From an uncultured Gammaproteobacteria bacterium (GTDB taxonomy: Bacteria; Pseudomonadota; Gammaproteobacteria; JABCZS01), in assembly GCA_963848305.1 (NCBI GenBank), contig CAWKDC010000001.1, positions 640,001 through 704,000 of the forward strand: a stretch of DNA of 64,000 bases, read 5' to 3'. How positions within the stretch are numbered: the first letter of the stretch is position 1; each line of letters opens with the position of its first letter. This document shows, piece by piece, positions 1,030 through 53,967 of this stretch. A program made the translations under genes and the position numbers. The notes below the pieces were generated by a model. That model worked only from the letters and a program-made list of their open reading frames with translations, was not told the DNA's origin and did not search any database.

Positions 1030-2012
1030 TGGATTTTCCTGGCGATTTCTATCGCATCTGTCGCTGCCCCTCGTCTTAAGTTATCCGAGCACAGCCATAG
1101 TTGTAAGCCATTAGGCAAAGCTGGATCGAGTCGCATACGCCCGACAAACACATTGTCTTGTCCGACGACTTCAACAGGCGTATGATACTGATCCTCCGAT
1201 AATGTCACACTGTTCGCTCCTTTCAATATCTCGCGCAGCGCAGGCAATGTAGGCTGACGCTCAAATGAGAGTGTTAGCGCAATTGAATGCCCAATCATGA
1301 CAGGCACACGCACAGCCATGGCACTGATGGGAAATGAAGCTTTCAGCACTTTATGCACTTCATGAATGATTTTAAATTCTTCGCTGGTCATGCCATCGGC
1401 TCCAATCGACCCTACTTGCGGGATTACATTGAAGGCAATTTGACGCATGAACACGTGGGGGACAACGGGCTGGTCATTTACCACATCAGCAGTTTGACTG
1501 AAGCATTCATCCATTGCGGATTTACCGGCTCCCGACGTTGACTGATACGTTGATACATTCATATAAGTCACACCCAAAGCCTGGTGCAATGGCGCAATAA
1601 CGGTCGAAATGGGAGAAGCCAAACAGTTGGCGTGCGAATACAGTTTTTGGGATGGATTCACGAGGTGAAGATTCACGGGGGGAATGATCAGCGGGACATC
1701 TTTATCTAAACGGAAATGCGAACTTGAGTCAACAACATACGCGCCGAGGCGCAAGGCGACAGGCACCCATTCAGCAGACACATCGCTTTCAGTGCAAAAA
1801 AGCACGACATCCTGATTTGAAAGTGATTTTTCTGACAATGACTGAAGCAGGAATCGTTTGTCATCTACCACCAAAGGCAACCCAGCCGATCTTTCAGACG
1901 CAATGGGTGTGATGTCAGCGCCTGCCGACCAAGAATCCCTTAACAATTGTGCAATCACTCGACGACCGACATTCCCACTGGCACCAACGATAGCGATATG
2001 AAAAGATGACAT
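1014..2012 (-). CDS. asd: Aspartate-semialdehyde dehydrogenase
   Basis: IAIVGASGNVG, catalytic ANC, STYQSTSGAG, RVPV and DNLRRGAA motifs; start set at ATG 2012 after a GAGGAGG RBS. Confidence 0.93.
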   Translation of the reverse strand: MSSFHIAIVGASGNVGRRVIAQLLRDSWSAGADITPIASERSAGLPLVVDDKRFLLQSLSEKSLSNQDVVLFCTESDVSAEWVPVALRLGAYVVDSSSHFRLDKDVPLIIPPVNLHLVNPSQKLYSHANCLASPISTVIAPLHQALGVTYMNVSTYQSTSGAGKSAMDECFSQTADVVNDQPVVPHVFMRQIAFNVIPQVGSIGADGMTSEEFKIIHEVHKVLKASFPISAMAVRVPVMIGHSIALTLSFERQPTLPALREILKGANSVTLSEDQYHTPVEVVGQDNVFVGRMRLDPALPNGLQLWLCSDNLRRGAATDAIEIARKIHQDLS

Positions 2013-2129
2013 GAAAAAGACCTCCTCAAAAGAAATCAAAATATATCATGAATGACGGTAAGTCGGGAGAAAAGCAAATTCTGAAATCAGTGTTACACTT
2101 AACCTATTGATCCAAAGCCAAAAGGACTT

Positions 2130-3272
2130 GTGCCCGTGAATGGATTACTGACAATAGCCCTCAAATTACTTGCAAATGATCGCGGTAAATTTTTTACCCT
2201 GATCGTTGGGGTTTCTTTCGCGGTATTTTTGATGATGCAAATGACCTGTATGTTTGCTGGACTCATGCGCCGCACCGGATCTGATATCTTCAATATCAAT
2301 GCGTCCATGTGGGTCATGGATCCCTCGCTCAACTCACAAGTTGATAATATCCCCATGCCTGATTATGTCCTGGATGCTGTTCGCAGCATTAAAGGTGTTA
2401 AATACGCTGTCCCGCTCTATACAGGCAGTGGCTTGGCCAAACTCAGCACGGGTCGCTATCAAGCAGTGAGTATTCTCGGCATAGACGATGCGACCCTATT
2501 CGGCCGACCCTATATGCTAGAGGGAAATATTGTCAACATTTACAATGACGATGCTTATATTGCGATCAAGGATGCAGAATTTGACAAACTGGATGGGGCA
2601 AAAATAGGCACAACTTTTGAGATCAATGATAATCGCGGTGTCATCGTGGGGATTGGCAAAGCCTCAGTGGGAGGCCTGTTTGGTACGCCCAGTTTATACA
2701 CCACCTATCGACGCGCCATTTCGGTTTTACCACAAACACGGTTTACACAGTCTTTTATTCTCCTTGAACCCAAATCCAAAAAAGATATTGTGAATATCCA
2801 AAATGATGTTAAAGCATTGGGATATCTCGCGTTGACCCGGGATCAATTTTATCAAAAAAACAGAGATTATTATCTTTATAAAACAGGGTTAGGCACCAAC
2901 GTGATGATCATGACATTCATCAGTTTTATCGTTGGTCTTTCCATCGCGGGTCAAACCTTTTATACTTTCGTGATAGAAAATCTTCAAGAATTTGGGGCAC
3001 TTAAAGCCATTGGTGCTAAGAAAAAAGAATTAATCACCATTATATTCTTTCAATCTTCTGTCGTAGGATTTTTGGGGTATGGATTCGGCATGTTTTTATC
3101 CATGAGTGTCATTGCATTTGCAAAACTCAGGCTCGCCAATTATGCTGCATTGGTCACGCTTGAGAATATGTTCTTCACCCTCTTGATGGTGTTGGTGATT
3201 GTCGCTTTTTCGAGTTATCTCGGCATACGAAAAGTGATCACAATTGATCCATTTGATATATTCAGGGGATAA
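2130..3272 (+). CDS. ABC transporter permease, FtsX/MacB/DevC-like
   Basis: N-terminal TM helix, large periplasmic domain, three C-terminal TMs with EFGALKAIGA motif. Confidence 0.88.
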   Translation: MPVNGLLTIALKLLANDRGKFFTLIVGVSFAVFLMMQMTCMFAGLMRRTGSDIFNINASMWVMDPSLNSQVDNIPMPDYVLDAVRSIKGVKYAVPLYTGSGLAKLSTGRYQAVSILGIDDATLFGRPYMLEGNIVNIYNDDAYIAIKDAEFDKLDGAKIGTTFEINDNRGVIVGIGKASVGGLFGTPSLYTTYRRAISVLPQTRFTQSFILLEPKSKKDIVNIQNDVKALGYLALTRDQFYQKNRDYYLYKTGLGTNVMIMTFISFIVGLSIAGQTFYTFVIENLQEFGALKAIGAKKKELITIIFFQSSVVGFLGYGFGMFLSMSVIAFAKLRLANYAALVTLENMFFTLLMVLVIVAFSSYLGIRKVITIDPFDIFRG

Positions 3273-3273
3273 C

Positions 3274-3960
3274 ATGATTCTTGAAGCTCAACATATCAAA
3301 AAGTTCTTTGGCGAAGGTGACAGCATCACTTATGCGTTGCATGATGTGACCTTTGAACTCGATTATGGTGAAATGCTCTATATTATTGGCCCATCTGGCT
3401 CTGGCAAAACAACGTTATTAAGTATTATCTCCGGTATCTTAAGGCCCAATGAAGGGAGTGTGCATGTAGAAGGTAAAGACATCTGGCAACTGAGCGATGA
3501 TGATTTATCAGATTTTAGATTGTACACCATCGGCTTTGTCTTTCAGGATTTTCATTTATTCAATACGCTCACCACCAAAGAAAATGTGGCCGTCCCTTTA
3601 ATTCTTCAAAACAAAACCATGGATGTTGCTCTTGAAGAAGCTGAAAAAAGATTAAAAATTGTGGGCCTAGAAAATAGAATGAACCTAATGCCTAATAAGC
3701 TCAGCATTGGAGAACAGCAGCGAGTAGCCATTGCACGTGCGATGATCACAGAACCCGATATTTTAATTTTCGATGAGCCCACTGCTTCACTTGATGGAGA
3801 AACGGGCAAACGCATCATCTCATTTATCAAAGAAAATATATTAACGCCTAAAAGAGCCATTATCATCGTGACACACGACAATCGTATTTATGATTTTGCA
3901 ACACGCATTATCAGGGTAGAAGACGGAAGAATGAAAGAAGGATTAGGGAGTGAATCATGA
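3274..3960 (+). CDS. ABC transporter ATP-binding protein (LolD/MacB/DevA-like)
   Basis: Walker A GPSGSGKTT, signature LSIGEQQR, Walker B ILIFDEPT, H-loop VTHD. Confidence 0.93.
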   Translation: MILEAQHIKKFFGEGDSITYALHDVTFELDYGEMLYIIGPSGSGKTTLLSIISGILRPNEGSVHVEGKDIWQLSDDDLSDFRLYTIGFVFQDFHLFNTLTTKENVAVPLILQNKTMDVALEEAEKRLKIVGLENRMNLMPNKLSIGEQQRVAIARAMITEPDILIFDEPTASLDGETGKRIISFIKENILTPKRAIIIVTHDNRIYDFATRIIRVEDGRMKEGLGSES

Positions 3961-4892
3961 AAACGAATAAACTATTCATGCTGGCATCCGGCGGCATTCT
4001 CGCAGGTTTGATCAGCGTCTATTTCTACAACGAAAATATTAAACCTCAACAACCACTTGGGGTCAGCTATAATCCTTATGAGGCAGGCATTTATGCAACA
4101 GGCATCGTGGAAAGTTTTCAAAAAAATGGTTCAAATATGAATCTCTATCCTGAGGCAGCTGGCAATGTGATTGATATCAAAGTACAGGATGGAACACACG
4201 TCAAAAAAGGGGATCTGCTTCTTGTTGTTGAACATGATGAGGCGCAAGCCACTGTCAACATGGATAAGGCCACAGTCCAATTAAATAGAGACAATCTTGT
4301 CACAGTTCAACAACAATATGACAAATTGAAAAAAGCCTATGATCTCAATCCGAAATCCGTGAGCAAAAACGATTTGGATAATGCAAAAAATGCAGTCATT
4401 GCAACTAAACAGGATATCGTCGTGGCCGAAGCACTTTTAGCCACTGACGTTGCAGCACTGGAAAACTATTTCATGACATCACCAGCTGAGGGTATAATTT
4501 TGCGGGTCGTTCCTGCACTCGGCGATTATGTCTCTCCTGTTGTAGGTGCTTATGATACATATACACAAGGCAACCTTCCAGTCATTCAAATTGCGCAAGT
4601 CTCACCCTATTATCAAGTGCGAGTATTCGTAGATGAAATCTTAACACCGCAATTGCCTGACCCTTCAAAATTAGAAGCAACCCTCTTTGTGCGTGGCATG
4701 AATAATAAAGCGATTCCTTTAGAATACGTCAACACTCAACCATTCACGATTCCAAATATTGAATTATCTGATCAACGCAATGAACGTGTGGACGTTAGGG
4801 TTTTACCTATCCTATTTAAATTTGAAAAACCGAAAGATATCACGGTCTATCCTGGACAACTGGTCGATATTTACATTAAAGGTAAACCATGA
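3957..4892 (+). CDS. Periplasmic adaptor (HlyD/MFP family) of a tripartite exporter
   Basis: N-terminal anchor, lipoyl-like halves (VQDGTHVKKGD; SPAEG), coiled hairpin, ERVDVRVL...PGQLVDIYI; ATGA overlaps with both neighbours. Confidence 0.87.
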   Translation: MKTNKLFMLASGGILAGLISVYFYNENIKPQQPLGVSYNPYEAGIYATGIVESFQKNGSNMNLYPEAAGNVIDIKVQDGTHVKKGDLLLVVEHDEAQATVNMDKATVQLNRDNLVTVQQQYDKLKKAYDLNPKSVSKNDLDNAKNAVIATKQDIVVAEALLATDVAALENYFMTSPAEGIILRVVPALGDYVSPVVGAYDTYTQGNLPVIQIAQVSPYYQVRVFVDEILTPQLPDPSKLEATLFVRGMNNKAIPLEYVNTQPFTIPNIELSDQRNERVDVRVLPILFKFEKPKDITVYPGQLVDIYIKGKP

Positions 4893-6343
4893 AGACGATC
4901 ATTCAAAATACAATCTGTATTGTCAGCACACTGATGCTGAGCAGTTGTACTTTATATCAAAAACCTGATACACCGGTACCGAATTATCCCCATTCTTTTA
5001 AAGTCTCAGTGAAAGAGATCGATCCTGAACTTAAAAACAATTGGTGGGAAAATTTTAATGATAATACCCTGAATGATCTTGTGCAAAAAGCCCTTAAAAC
5101 AAATTATAGTTATCAAATTGCACTCAATAATATTAACATTGCTCAAACATATGTTGATATGAATATGACAGCACTTTTCCCACAGCTAGGTATTGATTTC
5201 GGAAGCTCACGAAACTTGGGGATTCTCAATGTTGGAAATTCTAGTTCTTCAGCACCTCAATTAATTTCGCCCTCATCTGTACCCGTTCCATTTAATTTGA
5301 GTTTCTTGGCAGCAACCGTTTCTTATGAAATTGATGTCTGGAACCAAGCTCACAACGCAGTTGATCAAGCAAAAGCAAATAAATTTAGCACAGAAGCCAA
5401 TACAAATGTAATGAGGCTTACCCTGATCAGTTCAGTTGTCAATACTTACTTTCAGATAGCAGCACTCACGCATAATATCGATAATCTCAAAAAGCAAGAA
5501 GCTGCAGCCAAGGAAATACTGGAACTCACGCGAATTCAATATGACAGTGAATTAATTGATGAGAGTAATGTTTTCCAGGCCAGCACGCAACTCGAAAATA
5601 TTAAAACGGTTTTGAATACCAATATAAAACAGCGTGATATTTTAGAATATGGTTTAGCTTATTTGGTCGGTGAATTTCCAGAAAATTACACCGTGTTACC
5701 AACTGTTAATCTTGATGAGATTAAATTAACACGATTGATACCTGCCGGTATTCCATCACAAGTGATCAGCACACGCCCTGATATTCAATCAACGGTAGGA
5801 CAAATACTGGCTTATGGTTATCTTGAAAAGCAAAGTATTGCTAATTTTTTACCCAGTTTTTCACTGTCTGCAACCTATGGTTTTGCGAGTGAGGTTTTAT
5901 CATCGCTTACACAGGGGAAAAATGAATTGTGGAATTATGGTACCAACGTGATTCAGATCATATTAGACTACCCCGCTCTGCTTGCCCAATACGAGCAATC
6001 TAAATTGCAGTATGAATCAGCTGTGTTAAACTACAAAAACACAGTTCAAAATGCATTTGTTGAAGTCAATTCTGCGCTGGTGTCTTACGAAGAAGATTTT
6101 AAAACGTTTCAATCCTACAAAATTGAAAAACACAATTCAACAGAATTACTTGGGATAGCGAAGGCTCAGTATGACGCAGGCTTGACCAATTACGTTAATT
6201 ATTTATCGAATGATTTAACCTTTCTTCAAAGCGATTACAACCTCACGAACCAACGTGTGGTTGTACTTCAGGACATTGTGCAAGCGTATAAATCAATGGG
6301 GCTGGGACTCGATGTCACCCTTTACGAACCCGGTACGCATTAA
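4889..6343 (+). CDS. Outer-membrane efflux lipoprotein (TolC/NodT/OprM family)
   Basis: Lipobox LSSC, WWENFND, SYEIDVW, RPDI, C-terminal YKSMGLG. Confidence 0.9.
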   Translation: MKTIIQNTICIVSTLMLSSCTLYQKPDTPVPNYPHSFKVSVKEIDPELKNNWWENFNDNTLNDLVQKALKTNYSYQIALNNINIAQTYVDMNMTALFPQLGIDFGSSRNLGILNVGNSSSSAPQLISPSSVPVPFNLSFLAATVSYEIDVWNQAHNAVDQAKANKFSTEANTNVMRLTLISSVVNTYFQIAALTHNIDNLKKQEAAAKEILELTRIQYDSELIDESNVFQASTQLENIKTVLNTNIKQRDILEYGLAYLVGEFPENYTVLPTVNLDEIKLTRLIPAGIPSQVISTRPDIQSTVGQILAYGYLEKQSIANFLPSFSLSATYGFASEVLSSLTQGKNELWNYGTNVIQIILDYPALLAQYEQSKLQYESAVLNYKNTVQNAFVEVNSALVSYEEDFKTFQSYKIEKHNSTELLGIAKAQYDAGLTNYVNYLSNDLTFLQSDYNLTNQRVVVLQDIVQAYKSMGLGLDVTLYEPGTH

Positions 6344-7120
6344 GTGTTCCCTCTTCAGGTAGAGAATATTATTTTTTAATTTCTGTCTTATATCAGGGTA
6401 TTTTTCCAAAAATTGATTATACTCCACCATCAACCATTCATATTCTTGAAATCTTTGACGATAATGCAGTGGGTCAGTACATCGTGGTTCCATATGTTCA
6501 TGAATAATCATTTGAACATCGGGTACCAAGCTGGGTACAAATCCAGCACTTACCAAGCGGAAAAACAGCTCAGTATCTTCAATCGTTTTCATTTTTTCAT
6601 CAAAAAAACCTATTTGATCAAGACACTCCCTCCGAAATGTGACACCTGCACTTGTTCCTATTGATAAAAAATCCTCAAATAATTCTGCAGTCCCATTATA
6701 TTCATCTCTAAAATGACGATAAAATGTTTTACTTACTCCTGCAGCATCATAACAGATATGCTTTGTTTGACAAAAACTGACACCCACTCGAGTTGGTTGC
6801 GATTCAAGGTGAACGAACGTTTTTGAAAGAAAGTTATCAGGATATTCGTCATCATCATCTAGCAAGGCAACATATTTTCCCTTTGCCAAAAATAGCGCAG
6901 CGTTTCTAGTCGATGCAGGTCCTCTTTGACTGCTCGCCTCAACGTAATGAATTCTTGGATCATTGATGAGAGAAAAAAATGTTGAATAACTAATGGTTGA
7001 GCTATCGTTGACAATAACAATGTCAAAATCAGTGAAAGTTTGTTTGAGAACACTTTGAACAGCTCGAACCAGCATATCTGGTCTGTTGTATGTCGGTATA
7101 ATTACTGTAAAAATAGGCAT
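6293..7120 (-). CDS. Glycosyltransferase family 2
   Basis: VIIPTYNR, VVNDSS-like motif, LLDDDD (DxD), EDTELFFRL. Confidence 0.92.
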   Translation of the reverse strand: MPIFTVIIPTYNRPDMLVRAVQSVLKQTFTDFDIVIVNDSSTISYSTFFSLINDPRIHYVEASSQRGPASTRNAALFLAKGKYVALLDDDDEYPDNFLSKTFVHLESQPTRVGVSFCQTKHICYDAAGVSKTFYRHFRDEYNGTAELFEDFLSIGTSAGVTFRRECLDQIGFFDEKMKTIEDTELFFRLVSAGFVPSLVPDVQMIIHEHMEPRCTDPLHYRQRFQEYEWLMVEYNQFLEKYPDIRQKLKNNILYLKREHLMRTGFVKGDIESQPH

Positions 7121-7145
7121 CGTTTCACCCTGCTCTCCAAGTAGA

Positions 7146-7191
7146 ATAATAGCAAAAATCTGATTGACAGGTCAATAAAAATATGTAACAT
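7146..7191. promoter_or_regulatory. Putative overlapping divergent sigma70 promoters around an ATTGAC-AG-GTCAAT palindrome
   Basis: + strand TTGACA (7164-7169), 16 nt, TAACAT; - strand TTGACC (7175-7170), 18 nt, TATTAT. Confidence 0.45.
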
Positions 7192-7221
7192 TCATCGTAG
7201 GTATGAATGGAGGAAAGTGCC

Positions 7222-7650
7222 ATGGATTGTTATCAAATCAAGTCTCGGGTCATCTATGAAAACATGGATCATGAGGTTATTATCATTAATTTCAATACTG
7301 GTGATTACTACTCGCTTCGCGAGACCGCGAAACTGATTTGGTCATGCATAGAAAACAATATTTCAGTCTCTCATATTATTACCGCTTTTGTACAACGCTT
7401 CCCAATTCAAATTGCTCAAATTGAACAAGATTTGAAACTATTTTTTCAACAACTCATGAATGAAAATCTCATTGAACCTTCTAGCTCAATTGATAATTCT
7501 TTTGATATTTCTATTTTACTTGATCAATCTCCTTTCAACTATTATGTGCAACCCGTTCTTCAAAAGTACTCTGACATTGATCAATTGTTATTGCTTGACC
7601 CAATCCATGATGTAGACAATACAGGCTGGCCGAATCAAGTGGAAGCTTAA
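7222..7650 (+). CDS. PqqD-family RiPP recognition element (RRE) with a C-terminal precursor-like tail
   Basis: EVIIINFNTGDYYSLRETAKLIW...DLKLFFQQLMNENLI fits the PqqD/RRE pattern; tail YYVQPVLQKYSDIDQLLLLDPIHDVDNTGWP; RBS GGAGGA before ATG 7222. Confidence 0.85.
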   Translation: MDCYQIKSRVIYENMDHEVIIINFNTGDYYSLRETAKLIWSCIENNISVSHIITAFVQRFPIQIAQIEQDLKLFFQQLMNENLIEPSSSIDNSFDISILLDQSPFNYYVQPVLQKYSDIDQLLLLDPIHDVDNTGWPNQVEA

Positions 7651-7652
7651 AA

Positions 7653-8687
7653 ATGCTCACAAATGCTGATCTGTTCCATCTACAAATCCATGCTTCATTT
7701 GAAGAATCCGCAATCGGATTACACGTCGAAGAGGCCTGCTACAGCATTGCAGGTCAAACGATTTTATTGAAGTCGTTAAACAAGAACATGCTGGACAAAT
7801 TAACCGCAGCACTTGCGCATGCAAAATTGGGTGCTTCAAATAATCCACACTTCACCATCCATATTTGGGATTCGGCATCTCTAGGTGTTCCAAACATTAA
7901 ATTTAACTGGCACGATGAGCACTCATCCTATGGGTTGCGAGGTGAGGTACGATTACATAATACTGATAACGTCTACACGATACTTGACATCCATACAGGC
8001 GCATTGATGCTTCTTAACAAAAAAACCAATCAAGGATATTATTGGATAGATAATGCCAATAGGCTTCCTTGGTGGGTCAGTGGTTCTCCGATGCAACAAC
8101 TGCTTAGCTGGTGGATGCGAGATCGAGGATTACAATTAACCCATGCTGGTGCAGTGGGTTATTCAAGTGGCGGCGTGATATTGGCAGGAAACAGCGGTGC
8201 AGGTAAATCTACTACGGCGCTGGCCTGCATGAAGTATGGGATGAAATTTGTCAGCGAAGATTATTGCTTACTCAGTGTTCAAGATCAATTGAAAGCGCAT
8301 TGTATTTATTCCTCAGCTAAACTTGAACAAAATACACTCAATTTTTTTCCTGAAATGAACGAACATATTGATAATAAAAATAGGACAGAACATGAAAAAG
8401 CTTTTTTATATCACCATCAAATTTGGCCTGATCGTATCGCTCAAGGTTTTCCAATAAAAGCAATCTTGGTTTTGAAAAGACAAAACACCACTCGTAGCTC
8501 TATTCAACCCGCTACAAAGGATGATGCCCTCAAAGCACTTGCCATCAGCACAATGTGGCAATTGACACATACGGGCATTCCAACATTTCAGTTATTGAAA
8601 AAGGCAACAGAATCTGTCCCTTGCTACTTCCTGCACTTGGGTCGTGACCTGCAGCATATCCCAGAGATCATTGGACATGTTTTATGA
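7653..8687 (+). CDS. HprK-related serine kinase (lasso/RiPP-associated type)
   Basis: LTHAGAV, P-loop GNSGAGKSTT, FVSED; lacks the canonical HprK EIRGLG signature. Confidence 0.82.
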   Translation: MLTNADLFHLQIHASFEESAIGLHVEEACYSIAGQTILLKSLNKNMLDKLTAALAHAKLGASNNPHFTIHIWDSASLGVPNIKFNWHDEHSSYGLRGEVRLHNTDNVYTILDIHTGALMLLNKKTNQGYYWIDNANRLPWWVSGSPMQQLLSWWMRDRGLQLTHAGAVGYSSGGVILAGNSGAGKSTTALACMKYGMKFVSEDYCLLSVQDQLKAHCIYSSAKLEQNTLNFFPEMNEHIDNKNRTEHEKAFLYHHQIWPDRIAQGFPIKAILVLKRQNTTRSSIQPATKDDALKALAISTMWQLTHTGIPTFQLLKKATESVPCYFLHLGRDLQHIPEIIGHVL

Positions 8688-9811
8688 ACATACTTTTTTG
8701 GACAGATCGATTTTATCCTGGCATCGGCGGCATTGAAACACAAACATTTCAATTGATTCAAGGTTTATTAACAAAAAATCATCGTTGTTTGGTTTTCGCA
8801 AATCAATATGATTTATCGCTACCCTTAAAAGAAACAGTCGACGGTATTGAAATAATCAGATACGATTTCTCACCGTTTCTTGAATGGAATATGAATGGTC
8901 GTGTTTTACTCAAGGAAGTTGAGACAGCTTTAAAAACTCTCTTTTCAACGTTTAAGCCAGATATTATCCACCTTTCTCTGTACGTTATCAGTCAAACAGG
9001 CATGTGCTTCTTGCTTTTACGAAAAATGATACCTTGTCCAGTTGTTTTTACTGTTCATGGTATACCATACACTCACGGTAAGCCCTATCATCTTTTCAAT
9101 TTTTTTCTCGAACAATCTGATCAAGTCTGTTGCGTCTCAAATTCGGTTGTTTCATTAGTTAATCAATTCGCTCCAAAAGTGTCCCATAAAACAAAGCTCA
9201 TTTACAATGGGCTTTCTCTACCTTCGGATCATCATACTCATTTACCCTATGATCCACCTGTCTTGTTATGCCTGGGAAGGCTTTCATCTGAGAAAGGATT
9301 TGACATTGCAATTAAAGCATTCTTGTATGCAAAAGCAGAATTTCCATCTGTAAAAATGATGATTGTCGGTAGTGGTTATGAAAATTCATCGCTTGAGAAA
9401 CTTGTTAATGATCTGAATCTGACTGATTCCATCATTTTTGAAGGAGCAGTGAAAGCAACTGATGTTCATTCATACATTAAGCGATCAACCATTGTATTAA
9501 TGCCATCATACTCTGAAACTTTCGGATTAGTGGCCGTTGAAGCAGCGCAGATGAAAAGGCCAGTCATTGCTTGTGCCACTGGCGGTCTTGTGGAAGTGAT
9601 TATTGATAATGAGACAGGCATATTGGTCCCACGTTATGATTATAAAGCTTTTTCACAGGCCATACTTAGACTATTAAACAACCCAGCTTTAGCCATTTAT
9701 TTAGGAGAAAATGCGTATAACCGTGCTAATCAAAAATTCTCTCTCAAGAATGTCGTCGAGAATTACGAAAGTGTATATCAAAAACTACTCACCTGTGAAG
9801 CAATACCATGA
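8684..9811 (+). CDS. Glycosyltransferase family 4 (GT-B)
   Basis: PGIGGIET, LGRLSSEKG, ETFGLVAVEA (EX7E). Confidence 0.93.
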   Translation: MNILFWTDRFYPGIGGIETQTFQLIQGLLTKNHRCLVFANQYDLSLPLKETVDGIEIIRYDFSPFLEWNMNGRVLLKEVETALKTLFSTFKPDIIHLSLYVISQTGMCFLLLRKMIPCPVVFTVHGIPYTHGKPYHLFNFFLEQSDQVCCVSNSVVSLVNQFAPKVSHKTKLIYNGLSLPSDHHTHLPYDPPVLLCLGRLSSEKGFDIAIKAFLYAKAEFPSVKMMIVGSGYENSSLEKLVNDLNLTDSIIFEGAVKATDVHSYIKRSTIVLMPSYSETFGLVAVEAAQMKRPVIACATGGLVEVIIDNETGILVPRYDYKAFSQAILRLLNNPALAIYLGENAYNRANQKFSLKNVVENYESVYQKLLTCEAIP

Positions 9812-10527
9812 ATATTAACGATTTGATCAGTGTGATTATCCCCTGTTTCAATGGAGAAAAGTACATTAACGAAGCCATTGAAAGTGTCATTTGTCAGAAA
9901 GACGTTTGTTTTGAAATCATTATTGTAGATGATGGATCAACTGATAACACTTCAAAGATAATCAAACAATATACTGAAAAGAACATCAAATTGTTATACC
10001 AGGCCAATCATGGACAAGGATATGCATTCAATAATGCAATTGGCGTTTCGAATGGAAATTATATTGCTTTTCTTGATCATGATGATTTATTTACGCCGAA
10101 CAAATTATCGCTTCAAATAAACTACATGAAAGATAATCCAGATACGCATTTGGTTTTTGGCATGATAGAACACTTCATCAGTCCTGAGTTACCTGATCAC
10201 ATCAAAACAATACGTCATTGTCCATCAGAACCATTACCAGGTATTGCGCCCTCCACAATGATGTTTAAACGAGAATGCTTTGATATCCTAGGCCCATTTA
10301 ACACCACCTTGAAAGTGGGCTCTCATATTGATTGGCTGATTCGCGCTAAAGAAAAAGGCTTTAATCAATACACTCTTCCACAAGTAGTATCACGGCGCAG
10401 AATACACGATACAAATACCAGCATCATAGAACGACACAATCATGGTCAATATATTCAAATCATCAAAGAAAAACTTGCACGAGAACGACTGAGAAATGCA
10501 CATAATGAGGTTTACCATGAAAAATGA
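9808..10527 (+). CDS. Glycosyltransferase family 2
   Basis: ISVIIPCFNGE, VDDGSTD, FLDHDD, RRRIH. Confidence 0.93.
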   Translation: MNINDLISVIIPCFNGEKYINEAIESVICQKDVCFEIIIVDDGSTDNTSKIIKQYTEKNIKLLYQANHGQGYAFNNAIGVSNGNYIAFLDHDDLFTPNKLSLQINYMKDNPDTHLVFGMIEHFISPELPDHIKTIRHCPSEPLPGIAPSTMMFKRECFDILGPFNTTLKVGSHIDWLIRAKEKGFNQYTLPQVVSRRRIHDTNTSIIERHNHGQYIQIIKEKLARERLRNAHNEVYHEK

Positions 10528-11680
10528 TGACTATTCAGGCAACTGTTGGCCTAAGGATCAACATTTATTATTGATGCAAGCCGCGCTTCTTGACGGTGAT
10601 AAGGCATTAAACGCTTGGCATCAATGGATATCTACGGTCGATATTGACAAGCTTGACTATCCATCCTATCAGATAATCCCTTTGCTCTATCATAATCTTA
10701 AAAAAATGCAGATAAGTCATCCTGCAATGAATATTTTTAAGGGCATTCATCAACGCACCTGGGTTGAGAATCAACGAATGACGATGTTGTTCTCAGATGT
10801 CGTACAACAATTAATATCTCACGGTATCGACGAGATTGTTCTCATGAAAGGCGGGGCAATGATTGCTCTCTACTACCAAGATTTTGGCATGCGACAAATG
10901 GGTGACATCGACTTTCTGGTACGCCCTGAATGTGTTCAACAAGTCATGCAATGCTTAACAGAGCTCGGTTTCAAAGGAGAAAATATCGAGCATAAAATGA
11001 ATACACAACATGCAGTTAATTTAATGTGCGATTCTGCTCCTTTCAAAGGGCTCAATATTGATCTCCATTGGAGTATGCTCTATCAAATACCTCTCCCCAA
11101 CATTGATCCGCATTGGGTGCTCGATGCCGAGAAAACCTCTTTGCATGGTGTTAAATTATTGGCGTTGTCTCCCACACATTTGTTATATCAAACCTGTATT
11201 CATGGCTCAAAATACAGCCCATTGCCGCTCACGCGCTGGGTATTAGATGCCCATACTATTTTATCTCAGAAGAAAAATGTCATTAACTGGGATGCTCTTA
11301 TCGAAAGAGTCGATTATGATCGCACAGTTTTTCCCATGCTCCAAACACTGAGTTTTTTAATCGATCATTTTGATTCCCCTGTCCCCTCACATGTTCTTGA
11401 AAGATTGCGCGCATCACCCATACTGCGCTTTGAAAGATGGCATACACGGTTCAGCCAGCATAAGTGGTTAAGTTTAACACTGATATTCCCCCGTCTCTGG
11501 CATGAGCATCAAAGAATGCTACAAGGTGCATCAACCATAAAAGCGTTGATCAATTTTCCAGTTTTTTTGCAACATAAATTTTCGTTGAACAGCGTTTGGG
11601 CACTATTCTTCTTTTTGCCAACGAAGTCAATCCAGGTTATTCAGTCGAGGATCTTTTCTTTATTTCCCCGCGCGGACTAA
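10517..11680 (+). CDS. Nucleotidyltransferase, NTP_transf_5 family
   Basis: VLMKG...YY...R.MGDIDFLV and IDLHW motifs; start ATG 10517 after GAGG. Confidence 0.85.
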   Translation: MKNDDYSGNCWPKDQHLLLMQAALLDGDKALNAWHQWISTVDIDKLDYPSYQIIPLLYHNLKKMQISHPAMNIFKGIHQRTWVENQRMTMLFSDVVQQLISHGIDEIVLMKGGAMIALYYQDFGMRQMGDIDFLVRPECVQQVMQCLTELGFKGENIEHKMNTQHAVNLMCDSAPFKGLNIDLHWSMLYQIPLPNIDPHWVLDAEKTSLHGVKLLALSPTHLLYQTCIHGSKYSPLPLTRWVLDAHTILSQKKNVINWDALIERVDYDRTVFPMLQTLSFLIDHFDSPVPSHVLERLRASPILRFERWHTRFSQHKWLSLTLIFPRLWHEHQRMLQGASTIKALINFPVFLQHKFSLNSVWALFFFLPTKSIQVIQSRIFSLFPRAD

Positions 11681-13924
11681 ACTACCTAACCCCGCCTCTA
11701 CCAATGCATTTTCAAGTAAAGCGCGTGTTTTGAGAGGATCATCCAATTGCAGTACAAATCCCAATAATGATTGTGCAACTGAGAGGGGAATATTACGTAT
11801 GACCCACTTAACCCGTGTTAAACTCATGGCGTTCATGCTCAAGGAATCGTAGCCCATGGCCAATAACAAAATAACGCTCGCTGGATCACCTGCCATTTCG
11901 CCACAGATGCTGACTGGTTTTCCCTGTGCATGTGCTCCTTCTACCACTTGAATCAATGCTTGTATGACAGCGGGGTGAAATGAATCATATAAATTAGCCA
12001 CACGTGAATTATTTCGATCCACTGCCAACATATATTGTGTCAAATCATTGCTACCAACTGATAAAAAATCGCATTCACTCGCAAATAAACTTGCTTGATA
12101 AACTGCCGATGGGACTTCTACCATAACCCCCACTTGAGGACGATCAATGAGCAGATCTTCCGATTTGACTTCATAATAAGCTTGTTCAATCAGCGCATTG
12201 GCTTCTCGAATTTCACGAACAGCACTGACCATCGGAAGCATAATGCGCAAATTATTAAGCCCACTGCTCGCACGCAACATCGCACGCACTTGTACCATAA
12301 AGATTTCAGGATGATCGAGTGTGATGCGCAAACCGCGCCATCCTAAAAATGGATTTTCTTCTGCAAAGCTAAAATAAGGTAATACTTTATCGCCGCCCAC
12401 ATCCAAGGTCCGCATGGTGACAGGACGTGGATAAAATGCTCGCAGGATTTGTTCATATATTTGACGCTGTTCTTCTTCACTGGGAAAACGTTCCCGAATC
12501 ATGAACGGGACTTCTGTCCGATAAAGTCCAACACCTTCTGCACCCACATTCAAGGAGGAAGGAATATCGGCAACCAATCCTGTATTCACCAGCAAAGGCA
12601 CATGGTGACCGTCAGGCGTGCATGCTGGTTGGTTGTGTAGCGCTTGCAATCCTTCCTGAAATGCCTTCCCTTCCTTCATAAGACGAGAAAATTCTTTGCA
12701 GACGGTCAGCGAAGGAGATAAATGCACTTTCCCATGATAACCATCAATCGCAAGTGTTTGTTTATCAATGCCGCCTAATGGTAATTCGTAGGCGCCCATA
12801 ACCGTTGGAATACCCATAGAACGTGCCAGAATGGCCACATGAGAATTCGATGATCCACGCAAACAGACGATACCGACTAATTTATCAGCGGGAACTTCTG
12901 CCAAATTGGATGCACTGATATCCTCACCCACTAGAATTGTTTGTTCATAATATACCGGCACTTCTTTTTGTTCTGCTTGCAGTTTAGACAGTATGCGCGC
13001 ACCAAGATCTTTCAAATCTGTTGAACGTTCTCGCAAATAAGCATCTTCCATCGATTCAAAATTTAAAATATGTTTTGAGATCACCTCGCGCAGCGCGGCT
13101 TGAGACCAGCATTTTTTGGTCTTGATCACCTCAATAACTTCATCACCCAACCCTGATCGTTCCAGCATGTTGATATAAGCATTGAATAATGCCTGTTCTT
13201 CTGTCGGCAAAGATTTTTTAAGCCGATCGGCAAGTTCACGCATTTCATCACGCGCTGATTGCAATGCTTCTAAAAAGTGATCGATTTCAGCATTCACATC
13301 TTCAATATGACGATCGGGGACGGCATCTAAATCTGCAAGGGGATACACACGTACTGCTGTCCCGATGGCCACACCAGGAGCACCTGCAATCCCTTGAATT
13401 TCTGACTCGCGCTTGGATTTAAAAGCACTGCCATCAATTTCGCTCTCTGTTTTGACTTGCGCAATGATCCCTCCCAGTTGTGCTGACACTGTTAATAAAA
13501 ATGCTTCTTCATTTTCATCAAACGTGCGATTGCCTGACTGTTGCGCCACCAAAATACCCAGCACTTTGCGCTGGTGGATGATGGGGACGCCCAGGAAAGC
13601 GGCATATCTTTCTTCACCGGTTTCAGGAAAATACATATAATTGGGATGATTGACAGCATCTTCAATATTGAGTAATTCTTCTCTTTCGCCAACCAAGCCC
13701 ACTAAACCCTGACCGACATCTATTTTCAACATACCGTCTATGCCAGGGTGATACCCTTTTGAGGCAATCAATGTATAGCAAGCCTCTTTTTCATTTTTGA
13801 GGAAAATCGCACATGCATCCACATGAATGGTTTCACAGACACGTCTCACCACAATACTCAACGCATCTGCAAGACCTGACGCTGCACTCATTTCTTGTGT
13901 GATACGTCGAATGAATTGGATCAT
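11660..13924 (-). CDS. ptsP: PEP-protein phosphotransferase EI-Ntr with GAF domain
   Basis: N-terminal GAF, SHVAILARS, GLYRTE, ENPFLGWRG, GSNDLTQY; downstream of rppH. Confidence 0.96.
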   Translation of the reverse strand: MIQFIRRITQEMSAASGLADALSIVVRRVCETIHVDACAIFLKNEKEACYTLIASKGYHPGIDGMLKIDVGQGLVGLVGEREELLNIEDAVNHPNYMYFPETGEERYAAFLGVPIIHQRKVLGILVAQQSGNRTFDENEEAFLLTVSAQLGGIIAQVKTESEIDGSAFKSKRESEIQGIAGAPGVAIGTAVRVYPLADLDAVPDRHIEDVNAEIDHFLEALQSARDEMRELADRLKKSLPTEEQALFNAYINMLERSGLGDEVIEVIKTKKCWSQAALREVISKHILNFESMEDAYLRERSTDLKDLGARILSKLQAEQKEVPVYYEQTILVGEDISASNLAEVPADKLVGIVCLRGSSNSHVAILARSMGIPTVMGAYELPLGGIDKQTLAIDGYHGKVHLSPSLTVCKEFSRLMKEGKAFQEGLQALHNQPACTPDGHHVPLLVNTGLVADIPSSLNVGAEGVGLYRTEVPFMIRERFPSEEEQRQIYEQILRAFYPRPVTMRTLDVGGDKVLPYFSFAEENPFLGWRGLRITLDHPEIFMVQVRAMLRASSGLNNLRIMLPMVSAVREIREANALIEQAYYEVKSEDLLIDRPQVGVMVEVPSAVYQASLFASECDFLSVGSNDLTQYMLAVDRNNSRVANLYDSFHPAVIQALIQVVEGAHAQGKPVSICGEMAGDPASVILLLAMGYDSLSMNAMSLTRVKWVIRNIPLSVAQSLLGFVLQLDDPLKTRALLENALVEAGLGSLVRAGK

Positions 13925-20655: not shown

Positions 20656-20693
20656 AAAAACCCCCGATGCGGAAGTATCGGGGGTTTTTCTTT
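20656..20693. terminator. Intrinsic terminator (likely bidirectional)
   Basis: AAAAACCCCCGATGC-GGAA-GTATCGGGGGTTTTT. Confidence 0.85.
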
Positions 20694-20820
20694 GTCACAA
20701 TTCCCGACCCCTCAAAGAGTACACATATCTTCAAGTCAGCGTCGAGAATATTTATTATTGACAATAAAAATATTGATGGATATGATACCTCTTGTGCTTC
20801 TCAAAGCAGGGAGAATAATA

Positions 20821-23800
20821 ATGACAATTGTTTATAAAAATAACATATTGTATGTGGATAATGAACCCGTGATTCATGAAGGATCTGATGGCTACGCCGA
20901 CATGCAACAGTTGTGCTGGGTTCAGGTGGGCGACAAACGCATCATCAAACCCTTCACCGCACGCGTGTATGCAAAAGATCTAGAAAACCTGTGTGAAGAT
21001 GTGCGCGTGAATGGGCATCGCGTCGCGACGATCCATTCCTATTTTAAAAAATGCTATGGCGATGAAATGTCAGAGGGTGGCGTGAAAAGTGGTACCAAAG
21101 GTGGGTCATCGCATTTCATCACAGCATCGCCCAATGTCTCTCATGAAGGTATGCGGTTTGTACGTCGCGGGGATATGATCATTGCCAACAACCGTAATTC
21201 GGTTATTGGTGCATGGCAAGATTCACCGCCCAATGCGCCGTCTTTTCAAGATAAATGCCAATCCAAATTGATTAGCCCCAACGATCAGATTGAAACGGTG
21301 ACACTCTCAGTTCAACTTAATCCATATGATACAAAACCGAATCGAACACTGCCCTTTCACCGCGCACTTTCAGTATCAACGCCTGAGCAAGAATTTATCG
21401 CATACGCACATACCACGGGCGCAATTGCTGTCGATCATAAAATCACTTTTCAATTGTCTGTCCCACGGGCTGACAAAATAGAAGTACGTGAATGCTTAAA
21501 CGATCCAGCTGGCGACTTGTATAGCGTGCATCAAGGGTTCGGAAATGTGAACATGATTGTCGCTGATTTTAAAACATTTAGCTCACCGGAAAATGATCCA
21601 GCGCATATTCAAGCGGTATTTTCAGATACATGGATTTATATATTGAAAGATGGACAACCATGGCGCGAAATGAAAGGAAACCATGAAATAAATTTGATAA
21701 AAGAAGCAGGCAAAGATATTCGCACCAGCCGAATATCGACTGATCGTGGCATTTTATTCAATGTGTCTGATCAAGAGGGGAAACATGAGTATGCTTATAT
21801 TATTTCTCCTGTTCAATTTACTTGGCAACAAATGCAATCCATTCCAGCCAGAGATGCAGTCGAGATGATATTCGGAAAATACCCAGAGGAACCAGTCCCA
21901 GACACCTATTTATCGCATGAATCCGTGTTCAACTATCCTCATCCTTCAGTCGCTGTGGTTTACATGAAAGATCCAGTAGGTCACGCTAGGTATTTAGCAG
22001 ATCAGATCATTGCACTTCACGATGCTCACATGGATTTTTTATCTGAACATACAGATTTATACCATTCAGGAAAATTGGTTGGTGATGTGCTGCAAGCATT
22101 GCAGGAACATGGTGAAGACTATCGGAAACATGTTCGAGATACAGAACGGTTAGAACAGGCACGATTATATGAAGAAACGTTGAAAATATACGAAATGAAA
22201 CTTGCTGAGTTAACAGATTTGTTGAAAGCATGTGTGGAACAAGCAGAGTCAAGCCATGCCTGGCAACAAGTTGATTTGACACAAACACATCATTTGGATC
22301 AACTGTCACAAGATTGGTATCGCATGGGCATGGCATTGAATCAAACGCAGATCGGCCGTGAATGTATAGTACAATTTTTGAAAGATGAACGAAGTACTCT
22401 GAATTATCTTTTAAATGCCGTTCCCGTTGTCGCGATATCATCCAGCACCAAAGGCATTGCGATGTCTTTGCTTGAGATGCTTGCCATTCCCTCTGCGAGT
22501 TATACGGAAGGTTTTCAAAAGCTGATTGCTTGGGTCAATAAGGTTTTTAAGGGGTTTGTTGACGCGAAAATCGTTCAAACATCATTCGACGAATTATCAA
22601 AACAAAGCCGTCCACTTTCATTGCCCATTGAGGTCGACCCGCATCATTTCGTCCTCACCATCACGCCTGATCGCCGGTTAGAGACGTTGGAAAATGACAC
22701 AGCTGCCCATACCCAAAAAAACTTGCTCAACCTCGACTACCCTCACAACAAAAAACGCTCTATCATATTGAATCCGTGACAATCAATGGTATGCCCGTAC
22801 ACCGCATCGCCAATGATCTGATTAAGCATCCTATGCTACATCAAATCTTTGTGATATTAGGGAGTGCGAATGCGGTGAGCGTGATGAGGCAGATGGACAC
22901 ATCTGATATCTCGTGTCAAGAAAAGTATCTATTGATAGCGGAGTTTATTAGTGGAATCGCTGAAACATTAACCTCAATTATTGAAATATCTGCATTAAAC
23001 ATTTATGCATCACAAAAAATTGGGAAACACAAAACTGCATCATTTATGAAGCTATTGACTCGAAAATTTTCGGGTATTGGCATATTAATCTATGCCGGGA
23101 CAGACATGTATAGAGGATTAAGCGCATTAAAATCAGGTTCAACTGGACTGGCTGCTGGATATGGTGCTGGTGTTGCGTCAGGGATGTTTTCATTCACCCT
23201 TTTGTTCACTAATGCCATTGCGACCACATTCTGTCTTCTTAATATTGTTCTATTAGCAAGTTCATTGTTCTTTGGCATTCTCAGCGTCATATTGCTAACA
23301 TATTTTTATAAAAATGAATGGGAAGAATGGCTCTATCAATCACCATGGGGAGCATCTGATACGCGTGTGGCAAAGCATCAAGATTCATTATTGAGATTGT
23401 TTAAAATCTTACAGATGGTTTATGTCAGTGACGTGCGGTATCTTGACAGTTCATTGCGTCAAAAAATACCACCTAAGCGTTATGAGAAAGTGATTCGAGA
23501 ACCGATTGATGGATCGATCCCAGTATTACGAGAAATAATACCCTCCCTGCATCAGGAACTGATGCGAAGCCCTATCCTGTTAACCATCAAAATCGTTCCC
23601 GTTCCAGATGCCGTGATCTTGGGATTTTTTGCAAAAAATAAGGCATTTGATATTCTAGGAAACCCTGAAATCCTGGCACCTTTCCGATATGAAAGATTTC
23701 ACAAAACAGATAATGATCATTCGCATTATATGACCATCAATCTACCTGGAAATATTTTGCCTGCTTCAGGTGAATCGCTTAAATTAACCTTGCGTTATCT

Positions 23801-23906
23801 TCTGCCACACGGCAAAGAATACGCAATGATTGAAACACGACATTTTCAAATTGAATACGATCGTTTGAATTATGTTTACCAGACAAGGCAAGTAAACTCA
23901 ATCTAA
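20821..23906 (+). CDS. DUF4150 (PAAR-like)-VasX_N/MIX-type toxin with hydrophobic C-terminal region; split by a frameshift between 22698 and 22776
   Basis: N-terminal GDEMSEGGVKSGT...SPNV..EG...RRGD....NNRN (DUF4150 pattern); WIYILKDGQPWRE, SPVQFTW, DPVGHARYL (VasX_N-like); Gly/Ala TM cluster then EWEEWLYQSPWG in ORF 22776-23906. Confidence 0.72.
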
Positions 23907-24056: not shown

Positions 24057-24087
24057 TGGGTATTGGTTGGACAATAATGGGGCAGTA

Positions 24088-25020
24088 ATGATTCAGTGGT
24101 TGATAAAAAAATATAGACTCAAATTGAAACAAAATCCAAACTATATTCGACAAAAACCCATGGGACGTGGCGCGCCCACCTGGGATGAATGGGAATATTT
24201 ACAACAATTTGATTGGTATTATGATGAATTTACATTTGAAAAGCGCTTCTCGTTTAAGGAAAGCGACTTAATCGAAAACCAAAAAAATTCTTCTCCATGC
24301 CTAACTTTCAAAAATGACAAGCTTATATTGAAAGTATTTTGTCATAATAATTTAGATGCATCAAGAAAAGTCATTGGCTCCTTTTCCGTTTTCCAATTAT
24401 TTCCAATTTTTTCGTTTGTTTTTGCAATATTATATTTCTCGGCATGGCTTTCACAGAGTGACATAAATTTTATACATCACTTTTTATCATTGTTTTTTGG
24501 TCTTCCAATTTTTATTTCTTGCTCATTGTTATTAAAAGTGGTCAAAGAATCCGCCGACATCCCCTATGCTATTTTTGACGGACATCAAAATACAATGATT
24601 ATTCGAAGTCAAGCTGGTGATGAGCACATTTCGTACGATCGGATCAGTTTTCAACTGTTGTCCATCTATGAAACCGCGTTAGGCGGTGCAATTGAAATGA
24701 ATATTTCATATGAGCATGAAGGATTACCGCCCAAGCAAATTATCACAGATATTTTTGAGACACCGCAACAAGCTCACAGTATTTTGAAAACCTATTATAC
24801 AATCTTGTCGGGTGATCCAACGATTTATGAGCAAGACTTGAAACCACATCCTGTAACATGGCGAGAATTTAATTTGCCATTTTGGCAGGCTGCAAAGGCA
24901 TATCGGGCGTCGTCCATGCGTCGGTTGATGTGTGTTTTCCCGCATTATTTATGTTTCCGCTTGATCCACGGGCATCCGATGGCAGTGTTGAGAGAGTATG
25001 AAATGGAAAAAGATTTGTAG
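24088..25020 (+). CDS. Membrane protein, putative cognate immunity protein
   Basis: AT-rich orphan with two central TM helices, directly downstream of the toxin. Confidence 0.55.
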   Translation: MIQWLIKKYRLKLKQNPNYIRQKPMGRGAPTWDEWEYLQQFDWYYDEFTFEKRFSFKESDLIENQKNSSPCLTFKNDKLILKVFCHNNLDASRKVIGSFSVFQLFPIFSFVFAILYFSAWLSQSDINFIHHFLSLFFGLPIFISCSLLLKVVKESADIPYAIFDGHQNTMIIRSQAGDEHISYDRISFQLLSIYETALGGAIEMNISYEHEGLPPKQIITDIFETPQQAHSILKTYYTILSGDPTIYEQDLKPHPVTWREFNLPFWQAAKAYRASSMRRLMCVFPHYLCFRLIHGHPMAVLREYEMEKDL

Positions 25021-28026: not shown

Positions 28027-28413
28027 ACTTTGATTCGCTCCTGCGATGTTTGGCTTCCATATTTCTGGCTGCATTCTAACACAGAATGCAGTATCATTCA
28101 CCTTTTAGTATCGGCACTTAAAGAGGCCACATGTACAAGTCAACTTCATCAGAATATGCCCCTGCATCGTTTTGGCGCCGCCTGGGGGCACTTTTTTATG
28201 ATGTCTTGGCCAGCCTGGCCCTGCTCATGTTCGCCAGTGCCTTGTGGTTGCCGTTTTACGGCGGGCATGCGGTACCCCCTGGAAACCACTGGTATCAAGC
28301 TTCCTTGATTGGGGTGTTATATCTCTATTTTGGATATTCTTGGCACAAGGGGCAAACACTGGGGATGCGAGCCTGGCGGCTTTATATCACTGATTTATCT
28401 GGAAAACCTGTTT

Positions 28414-53956: not shown

Positions 53957-53967
53957 GCATATCTCCT

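Follow-up and report, generated by a model that had tools for sequence, protein, structure and literature searches.

The LPP (linear polyphosphorylated peptide) family of Bacillota is the closest described counterpart of the locus presented here, in which a RiPP recognition element (RRE; RiPP, a peptide made by ribosomes and modified after translation), a leader-like motif and a conserved tail are joined in a single polypeptide. This RRE-tail protein is encoded in a 64,000-nucleotide stretch of an uncultured Gammaproteobacteria bacterium (assembly GCA_963848305.1, contig CAWKDC010000001.1, positions 640,001 to 704,000), the whole of which is referred to as the window. According to the accessible text of Popov et al. 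(Nat Commun 2026, PMC13381572), LPP clusters (LppA/B/K/S/D/N) are located within capsule loci, are reported as restricted to Bacillota and encode a discrete RRE, LppB, together with a separate precursor that carries YxxPxVLxHQxIxFETxxS at its N-terminus, plus a variable core reaching ~170 aa. Further components are a leader peptidase of the SpI (SipW-like) kind, an MsbA-like exporter and an NTP transferase that showed no activity in the heterologous host.

As far as this text describes the LPP system, the window cluster has in common with it a lasso-type RRE, the YxxPx[VL] motif, a setting of glycosyltransferase genes, the lack of a lasso cyclase, an HprK-like kinase (set beside LppK by family, not by sequence) and an NTP transferase of unknown substrate (membership of LppN in PF14907 being assumed). 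Compared by eye, the LPP leader and the RRE-tail motif agree at motif positions 1, 4, 6, 9 and 12. An MsbA-like exporter (ABC_membrane plus ABC_tran) occurs in 24 of 80 related loci but not in the window cluster, which has a DevCA-like exporter upstream instead. Unlike in the LPP clusters described there, the RRE and the motif behind it form one polypeptide, a separate precursor gene is not seen, and a near-invariant tail without an invariant Ser replaces HQxIxFETxxS and the variable core. No SpI-like peptidase was found in the six cluster genes, which all fall into other families, or in 18 neighbour groups (a genome-wide SpI search was not run), and in contrast to the reported restriction to Bacillota, the RRE-tail family is spread over many phyla.

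A second point of reference is provided by the paeninodin/pseudomycoidin clusters, in which, according to the available part of the source (PMC8498205), a kinase (PadeK) phosphorylates the Ser at the C-terminus and a nucleotidyltransferase puts a hexose on the phosphate. Within the same limits, the window cluster resembles this type by an HprK-like kinase and a nucleotidyltransferase beside a discrete B1-type RRE, and differs by the lack of PF13471, by only weak and distant Asn_synthase matches, and by the lack of a separate precursor and of a C-terminal Ser. The leader complexes of the lasso B1 proteins TbiB1 (5V1V/5V1U), TfuB1 (6JX3) and PbaB1 (9X90) share with the RRE-tail protein the fold, a pocket for the leader Tyr with an acidic or polar partner four residues before a Phe, and a leader that adds a strand; there the leader forms a chain of its own, whereas here the motif follows the RRE after a ~22-residue linker. 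PqqD belongs to the same Pfam family (PF05402) but is set apart by a sub-cut-off TIGR03859 score, weak structure-profile matches and the non-PQQ (pyrroloquinoline quinone) context.

The accessible sections of the RRE-Finder account (PMC7470986) report ~4,000 discrete lasso RREs without lasso machinery, about half of the matches, and regard them as possible false positives or as RREs of uncharacterised classes; neither a C-terminal leader-like tail nor a kinase/nucleotidyltransferase neighbourhood is described in these sections. The RRE-tail family probably forms part of this unexplained set. A survey from 2025 states, in its available part, that 21% of PF05402 proteins exceed discrete-RRE size without having a second Pfam domain (PMC12710340). 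A literature search, with most subscription journals outside its scope, returned no description of an RRE fused to a leader-like motif.

The RRE-tail protein and its family

The gene comprises the following parts, with residues counted from the ATG at 7207 throughout:

7207..7650, + strand: RRE-tail open reading frame (ORF) of 147 aa with RRE, linker, leader-like motif and conserved tail (ORF list, family search)
7273..7473, + strand: PqqD/RRE domain, residues 23-89 (Pfam PF05402, 50.2 bits vs cut-off 23.4)
7474..7542, + strand: Ser/Asp-rich linker, residues 90-112, varying in length and sequence among relatives, with a short helix (101-106) in the model
7543..7560, + strand: YVQPVL, residues 113-118, a lasso/LPP-leader-like [FY]xxPxL motif (conservation, AlphaFold2, covariation)
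7561..7632, + strand: conserved tail, residues 119-142 = QKYSDIDQLLLLDPIHDVDNTGWP (conservation; modelled flexible)
7633..7650, + strand: variable C-terminal NQVEA plus stop codon (single-domain relatives have 3 to 22 variable residues after GWP)

A sequence-only reading of the window had placed a leader-like sequence behind the RRE and a Ser/Asp-rich linker. This order is confirmed by the domain and linker boundaries, and the string quoted for the tail, YYVQPVLQKYSDIDQLLLLDPIHDVDNTGWPNQVEA, matches the ORF letter for letter, with nt 7540 being the first base of Tyr112 and 7650 the end of the stop codon. Residues 90-111 of the linker read EPSSSIDNSFDISILLDQSPFN, and 15 to 58 of 139 relatives have gaps in its columns 97-101. 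The true start is probably at 7222 rather than 7207, resulting in a 142-aa protein, because the ATG at 7222 has a Shine-Dalgarno-like GGAGGA (7210-7215) 7 nt upstream and is also where the database copy P0001 (142 aa) begins. The genome contains one PqqD domain.

A HMMER search against 1.84 billion representative proteins retrieved 3897 matches at E<=1e-3, of which 1559 reach E<=1e-10; nearly all of the best 150 matches span query residues ~13-144, tail included, and most of them are 138-190 aa long. Conservation was counted in 139 single-domain relatives that had been collected by HMMER without the use of any pattern. The family consensus reads [FY]xxPxLxK[YF][TS]DMQ[DE]LLLLDP[IV]H[ED]VDxxGWP. 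Within the motif, F/Y113 is present in 136, P116 in 137 and L118 in 105 relatives, followed by K120 (101), Y/F121 (135), D123 (135) and L127-L130 (117 to 126). Asp131 and the terminal G140, W141 and P142 are found in all 139 sequences, flanking H134 (138), P132 (137), V136 (126) and D137 (111); GWP was likewise present in 152/152 relatives. The tail after residue 120 is the best conserved portion of the RRE-tail protein, and the residues behind GWP show no preferred last residue and no terminal Ser. The expectation that motif and tail would be retained in an alignment of homologs thus held. A lone match to the loose pattern [FYW]xxPx[LIVMF] is unremarkable, since 82 of 1491 small intergenic ORFs from related loci contain one, approximately as expected from its looseness; it is the conservation that raises YVQPVL above chance.

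Judged by record titles, the 80 genome loci represent Acidobacteriota, Chlamydiae, Cyanobacteria, Chloroflexota, Patescibacteria, Nitrospirota, Planctomycetota, Verrucomicrobiota, Bacteroidota, Actinomycetota, several proteobacterial classes and others. Together with 80 more loci fetched with a tail-only query, RRE and tail share one open frame in 158 of 160 cases, and the remaining two frames hit a contig end. Conservation figures from these 160 loci are inflated, tail-derived patterns having fetched them, and we therefore rely on the 139-relative counts. In the metagenome scan with P0156, the exact locus was not among the 80 returned, every one of which is fused or cut. Among 401 sampled cyanobacterial genomes, 27 contain the tail, with all 28 matches lying within frames of 143-228 aa. 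Twelve of the cyanobacterial genomes, 1.7-2.5 Mb in size, carry a divergent tail form (G174, G248, G276, G290, G316, G324, G348, G354, G372, G382, G418 and G440), for which the tail profile covers positions ~12-39 only and leaves the leader-like start unmatched, in frames of 157-190 aa. G042 and G045 each have three or four copies of the tail gene at separate places.

No Pfam or NCBIfam model covers the DPIHxVDxxGWP tail in the family scans performed, a PDB sequence search with the tail profile yielded no match at E<=10, and the best score of an ESM Atlas search with the tail (0.76) stayed under any useful level. The genome of the window is no special case: an RRE with its own leader-like motif is standard throughout a very large, undescribed family.

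Leader-like motif and RRE cleft

Comparison of the family profile with solved structures placed the RRE next to lasso B1 proteins whose leader complexes are known: TbiB1 was matched with E 3.9e-18, PbaB1 (9x90_B) with 2.4e-14, TfuB1 with 6.3e-8 and LppB (9x8z_B) with 5e-7, and true PqqD chains reached E 0.03-0.06 only. The AlphaFold2 model, calculated from 133 sequences, has a mean predicted local distance difference test (pLDDT) value of 86.6, with 92-97 in the RRE domain, and shows a winged helix-turn-helix of strands 15-19, 23-28 and 33-38 and helices 40-49, 54-64 and 66-85. A Foldseek search with this model returned TbiB1 (5v1v_A) as the top match, with a template modeling score of 0.87 normalised to the target, and superposition on TbiB1 with its leader gave 0.87-0.89.

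The sequence-only reading had proposed that the RRE binds its own YxxPxL-type sequence and that a structural model should display an added strand. Such a strand is formed at residues 118-121, and the ten-residue blocks leading to it are modelled with high confidence (pLDDT 90 for 91-100, 90 for 101-110 and 96 for 111-120). Over residues 121-147 the values drop to 64, 52 and 60, despite the higher conservation of this part, showing that the high confidence is no by-product of conservation. Secondary structure, confidence and covariation, not coordinates, suggest that strand 118-121 pairs with strand 33-38.

Covariation provides a second line of evidence. When all pairs separated by six or more residues are ranked, 75-113 comes first (product-corrected mutual information, MIp, 0.45; runner-up 0.24) and 38-119 fourth. 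Asp or Glu occupies position 75 in 45/53 sequences with Tyr113 compared with 9/83 with Phe113 (uncorrected Fisher p 9e-19), and the window protein carries the Tyr113/Asp75 combination. On the tree, the character states at the covarying sites switch about 36 and 33 times. Residue 75 is located four residues ahead of the conserved Phe79. In the accessible text on LPP, D70 of LppB and Q79 of PbaB1, four before a pocket-dividing Phe, are described as hydrogen-bonded to the leader Tyr or Trp (PMC13381572), and our own alignment suggests residue 75 as their counterpart. In the LppB-LppA crystal structure reported there, leader residues M-12 to Q-7 form an added strand (PMC13381572); with the Tyr as reference point, their counterparts in the RRE-tail protein are residues 117-122. 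LppB lacking its leader was insoluble (PMC13381572).

Proteins with two or three RRE copies (n=13) have a [FY]xxPx[LIF]-like motif behind most copies and at most one DPIH..GWP per protein, and in the model of P0017 a short strand follows every RRE. The occurrence of no more than one tail even with three RREs shows that the RRE-bound motif and DPIH..GWP are separable units. Among the multi-copy proteins, P0010, P0016, P0023, P0137 and others contain two or three RREs and a single tail at most.

Based on the confidence and added strand of the model, the top-ranking pair 75-113 and the kinship to lasso B1 proteins, the [FY]xxPxL motif very probably contacts the RRE cleft, in agreement with the proposal of the sequence-only reading. 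Several points temper a self-loaded RRE. Model, covariation and repeats are compatible with binding in cis as well as with a swap between two molecules. Of 35 path-disjoint nearest pairs differing at position 113 on the best tree, 26 combine the acidic residue 75 with Tyr, one shows the opposite and eight do not differ at 75, a count that depends on weakly supported branches; the strict independent-pairs test retains just three pairs on supported branches and is hence powerless. For this reason, the phylogenetic correction is indicative, not rigorous.

A motif bound in the cleft could also be a lid, which is displaced by a separate precursor that is encoded elsewhere or is too small or variable to be noticed. 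The long and variable linker would allow the motif to swing out, and a profile search with the tail alignment detected 281 database proteins of 21-98 aa that match the tail alone, a few of them on long contigs without an RRE remnant (e.g., P0160 and P0241). Upon inspection of 25 of these short proteins, many were found to hold the last RRE helix, and most of 120 listed ones are located on contigs <2 kb, for which reasons they look like cut or mis-started genes. P0160 (45 aa), P0241 (46 aa) and P0261 (53 aa), on contigs of 27-89 kb, hold hardly more than motif and tail, show no RRE remnant and could represent either free-standing precursor-like genes or remnants that were mis-called.

Searches for a separate precursor gave no candidate. 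The window cluster has no free intergenic space, its genes abut or overlap, and every small ORF overlaps a larger gene. Small ORFs across the 80 loci formed similar groups of four members at most, none of them leader-like and none common to the loci. Tail and leader motifs occur once in the whole genome of the window, without a second copy, and a word-index search for short proteins with the window's own tail had no match. This bears out the remark of the sequence-only reading that no separate precursor ORF is found. A split form was seen in 0/160 loci, the 28 cyanobacterial matches mentioned above are all in frames of 143-228 aa, and the tight 75-113 covariation speaks for a lasting contact. 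In view of these results, we consider a displaceable lid very improbable.

Neighbouring enzymes and the role of the tail

The RRE-tail gene heads a gapless, operon-like row of genes, preceded by a divergent glycosyltransferase gene and an exporter:

2130..6343, + strand: DevC/DevA-like ATP-binding cassette (ABC) exporter, periplasmic adaptor and NodT-family outer-membrane channel, four genes (NCBIfam)
6293..7120, - strand: divergent GT2 glycosyltransferase (Pfam Glycos_transf_2, E 7.2e-26)
7653..8687, + strand: HprK-like P-loop kinase, 344 aa, beginning 3 nt past the RRE-tail gene (HprK-family matches)
8684..9811, + strand: GT4 glycosyltransferase (Pfam Glycos_transf_1, E 3.7e-40)
9808..10527, + strand: GT2 glycosyltransferase (Pfam Glycos_transf_2, E 1.8e-33)
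10496..11680, + strand: NTP_transf_5 nucleotidyltransferase (Pfam PF14907, E 3.9e-32, 112 bits)

Promoter-like sites are present on both strands at 7146-7191, with the counts of promoter and terminator sites not exceeding those of shuffled sequences. The kinase matches Hpr_kinase_C (E 2.6e-5) and HprK_rel_B (E 6.9e-12), both under the curated cut-offs, and its GxxGxGKS is invariant. A kinase relative is encoded in 75 of the 80 genome loci, directly downstream of the tail in 60; the misses are L010, L011, L028, L036 and L074, with the contigs of L011 and L036 ending <1 kb downstream. Relatives of GT2 (72/80), NTP_transf_5 (52/80) and GT4 (at least 23/80) are likewise recurrent, accompanied occasionally by a sulfotransferase, GlcNAc 2-epimerase, PMT_2 or radical SAM protein. 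In Oscillatoria sp. PCC 10802 (L022), for instance, the RRE-tail gene is grouped with genes for the kinase, two GT2 enzymes, an ABC exporter and the nucleotidyltransferase. Furthermore, the functions are found fused: three proteins of 781-849 aa (P0004, P0017, P0034) combine three RREs with the kinase, and in two loci (L069:9272-11113, L079:3814-5595) the kinase is joined to GT2, tying the glycosyltransferase to the same pathway.

This linkage and the fusions make it likely that the kinase, the nucleotidyltransferase and the glycosyltransferases are presented with the tail. The opposite assumption would be an ordinary C-terminal extension of a PqqD-family protein that has nothing to do with the neighbouring polysaccharide locus. 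Glycosyltransferase-rich loci are indeed common, gene neighbourhood alone is weak evidence, and the matches of kinase and RRE to curated NCBIfam models are all sub-cut-off. The kinase in 75 and its position directly behind the tail in 60 of the 80 loci, the RRE-kinase and kinase-GT2 fusions and a gene set kept across many phyla argue against it, and this already disfavoured explanation appears very improbable.

Known cluster types were considered for the locus and rejected. A canonical lasso cluster was dismissed given that the B2 leader peptidase domain PF13471 has 0 matches in the whole genome (92% complete) and that Asn-synthase-type PF00733 has just two weak ones (31.8 and 25 bits), at C1:201 kb and on contig C3, distant from the locus at C1:647 kb. 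The lasso PqqD-chaperone models remain under their cut-offs (NF033536, 55.3 bits vs 80; NF033530, 27.4 vs 70). A PQQ operon was rejected on the basis of the scores for TIGR03859 (23.3 bits vs 46) and NF002535 (21.8 vs 101), pqq genes themselves not having been searched for; the neighbours are kinase, glycosyltransferases and nucleotidyltransferase and do not represent a PQQ-operon context. PADLOC had 0 matches on the six cluster proteins, from which it follows that the cluster is no catalogued defence system.

Taken as a whole, we give about even chances to a self-loaded RRE that hands its tail to the neighbouring enzymes. The lasso-B1-type RRE (23-89) would hold its own YVQPVL (113-118) in the leader cleft, with Tyr113 inserted in the first pocket and hydrogen-bonded to Asp75, and residues 118-121 would add a strand beside 33-38. 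Docking would fix the start of the flexible, near-invariant tail (119-142), composed of an amphipathic helix DMQxLLLL followed by DPIHxVDxxGWP, and the tail would be displayed to the HprK-like kinase, the NTP_transf_5 nucleotidyltransferase and the GT2/GT4 glycosyltransferases. As an acceptor for phosphate and then sugars it would make the protein chaperone and precursor in one, and the product would leave via the adjacent ABC exporter. A precedent for such display is the LPP leader, whose part beyond the RRE-bound stretch is proposed to contact the enzymes (PMC13381572).

Covalent modification of the tail, i.e., a fused precursor, is suggested by analogy with LPP and paeninodin/pseudomycoidin, and we rate it slightly short of an even chance. 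It is favoured because the RREs studied so far present peptides that are modified, relatives of the kinase act on peptides and no other precursor was found. Candidate acceptor residues are T/S122 and the invariant D131 or H134. The specific proposal of the sequence-only reading, a C-terminal core peptide modified by kinase and nucleotidyltransferase, is a candidate reading; the segment is hyperconserved, unlike a variable core, and has neither an invariant Ser, Thr or Tyr nor a terminal Ser.

A series of observations weighs against the tail as substrate. Its conservation is far beyond that of a usual RiPP core, and T/S122 is the sole semi-conserved hydroxyl residue in it. Position 122 is occupied by T in 80, S in 34, D in 10 and other residues in 15 of the 139 relatives, i.e., by T, S or D in 124. 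Ser, Thr, Asp and Asn are the usual helix N-cap residues, and for this reason position 122 is explicable by structure alone; residues 122-130, with helical turns at 123-125 and 127-129 in the AlphaFold2 model, look like a capped amphipathic helix. According to the accessible LPP text, LppK accepted Ser only (PMC13381572), and Thr is the commoner residue at 122 here. In the same text, LppK is described to polyphosphorylate Ser3 of the LPP core, 19 residues past the leader Tyr (PMC13381572), and the counterpart of this phospho-Ser is the invariant Asp131. A scan of the 18 recurrent neighbour groups and of the window cluster detected no leader peptidase, and the nearby exporters are of lipid or glycolipid types (DevCA-like here, MsbA-like in relatives). 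For the natural 3xRRE-kinase fusion P0017, AlphaFold2 (mixed alignment, 105 rows) gave a mean pLDDT of 83.9 and only 54-56 for DPVH..GWP, hence no sign of tail docking on the kinase. A complex prediction of kinase, ATP and RRE-tail protein (score 0.08, mark 0.32) counts neither way.

Many of these observations would be accommodated by an adaptor or activator, in which the permanently loaded RRE uses its unmodified tail to dock or activate the enzymes while the substrate itself is leaderless (a sugar, a lipid-linked glycan or another protein). Engineered fusions of leader and enzyme, from work on LynD and LctM, reportedly act on leaderless substrates, and the adaptor would be their natural counterpart. 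A tail that is near-invariant across phyla is expected of a surface fitting conserved enzymes, and the shortage of hydroxyl acceptors and of a recurrent neighbour peptidase points in the same direction. The neighbourhoods resemble glycan factories, with 1 to 4 glycosyltransferases, GlcNAc 2-epimerase, sulfotransferase, PMT_2 and MsbA/DevCA-like exporters; the kinase weakly matches FomB, a small-molecule kinase of the same fold (E 4e-4); and multi-RRE proteins hold one tail at most. Every characterised RRE, however, presents a peptide that itself gets modified, the characterised kinase relatives phosphorylate peptides, and the fusion model of P0017 lacks tail docking on the kinase. Overall, we see the adaptor as a real possibility of roughly one in three.

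Returning to the tail as acceptor, its most far-reaching version is a leader-in-cis phosphoglycan built on the tail, perhaps at D131 or H134 and not at Ser, which would be exported and constitute a RiPP-like class in >15 phyla. We regard this version as less probable than not.

Genomic surroundings and implications

The exporter and the whole cluster (~2001-11700) have a GC content of 0.37-0.42 compared with 0.49-0.50 on both flanks. The RRE-tail protein was not found in two same-genus and nine other same-family genomes, some of which are incomplete. Because of the low GC content and the lack of the protein in these genomes, the exporter together with the RRE-kinase-glycosyltransferase-nucleotidyltransferase block looks horizontally acquired. 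The most similar loci in named genomes belong to chlamydial metagenome-assembled genomes (L005, L008, L066), with identical gene order. The exporter genes match devC (E 2.3e-14) and the DevA family (E 1.1e-62), both below cut-off, as well as RND_mfp (E 3.5e-18) and, above cut-off, outer_NodT with 246 bits. DevBCA-type pumps serve glycolipid export in cyanobacteria, and the DevCA-like exporter may carry the product of the cluster out of the cell.

Elsewhere in the window, several housekeeping genes appear split into adjacent ORFs (25824-28101, 40620-42700, 51329-54004 and 57931-60428). Affected are RNase R (RNB and OB/CSD parts), an OppA-like binding protein, aconitase (N and C parts) and Lon protease (substrate-binding part and AAA/protease part). 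The split forms are pseudogenes in a genome undergoing reduction or else stem from assembly frameshift errors. In addition, a 695-aa protein is encoded at 20692-22776, with a Pfam Tox-PAAR-like match at residues 84-170 (E 8.5e-13); for the two ORFs following it (22776-23903 and 24067-25017), Pfam gave nothing at E<=1e-12.

Class-independent mining of ribosomal natural products relies mainly on RREs. An RRE equipped with its own recognition sequence and accompanied by kinase, nucleotidyltransferase and glycosyltransferases offers a testable account for a large block of orphan lasso RREs, and if the reading as a self-primed glycoconjugate is true, a large share of the orphan lasso-type RREs would be explained. 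In parallel, the logic of the LPP system would be extended from Bacillota to many phyla, in fused form and as a natural case of a leader in cis. The 75-113 covariation names residues for mutagenesis, and mass spectrometry has a well-delimited target in the 24-residue tail. A tail that serves as substrate would probably mean new post-translational chemistry; a tail that serves as docking arm would mean that RREs have been re-used outside peptide maturation.

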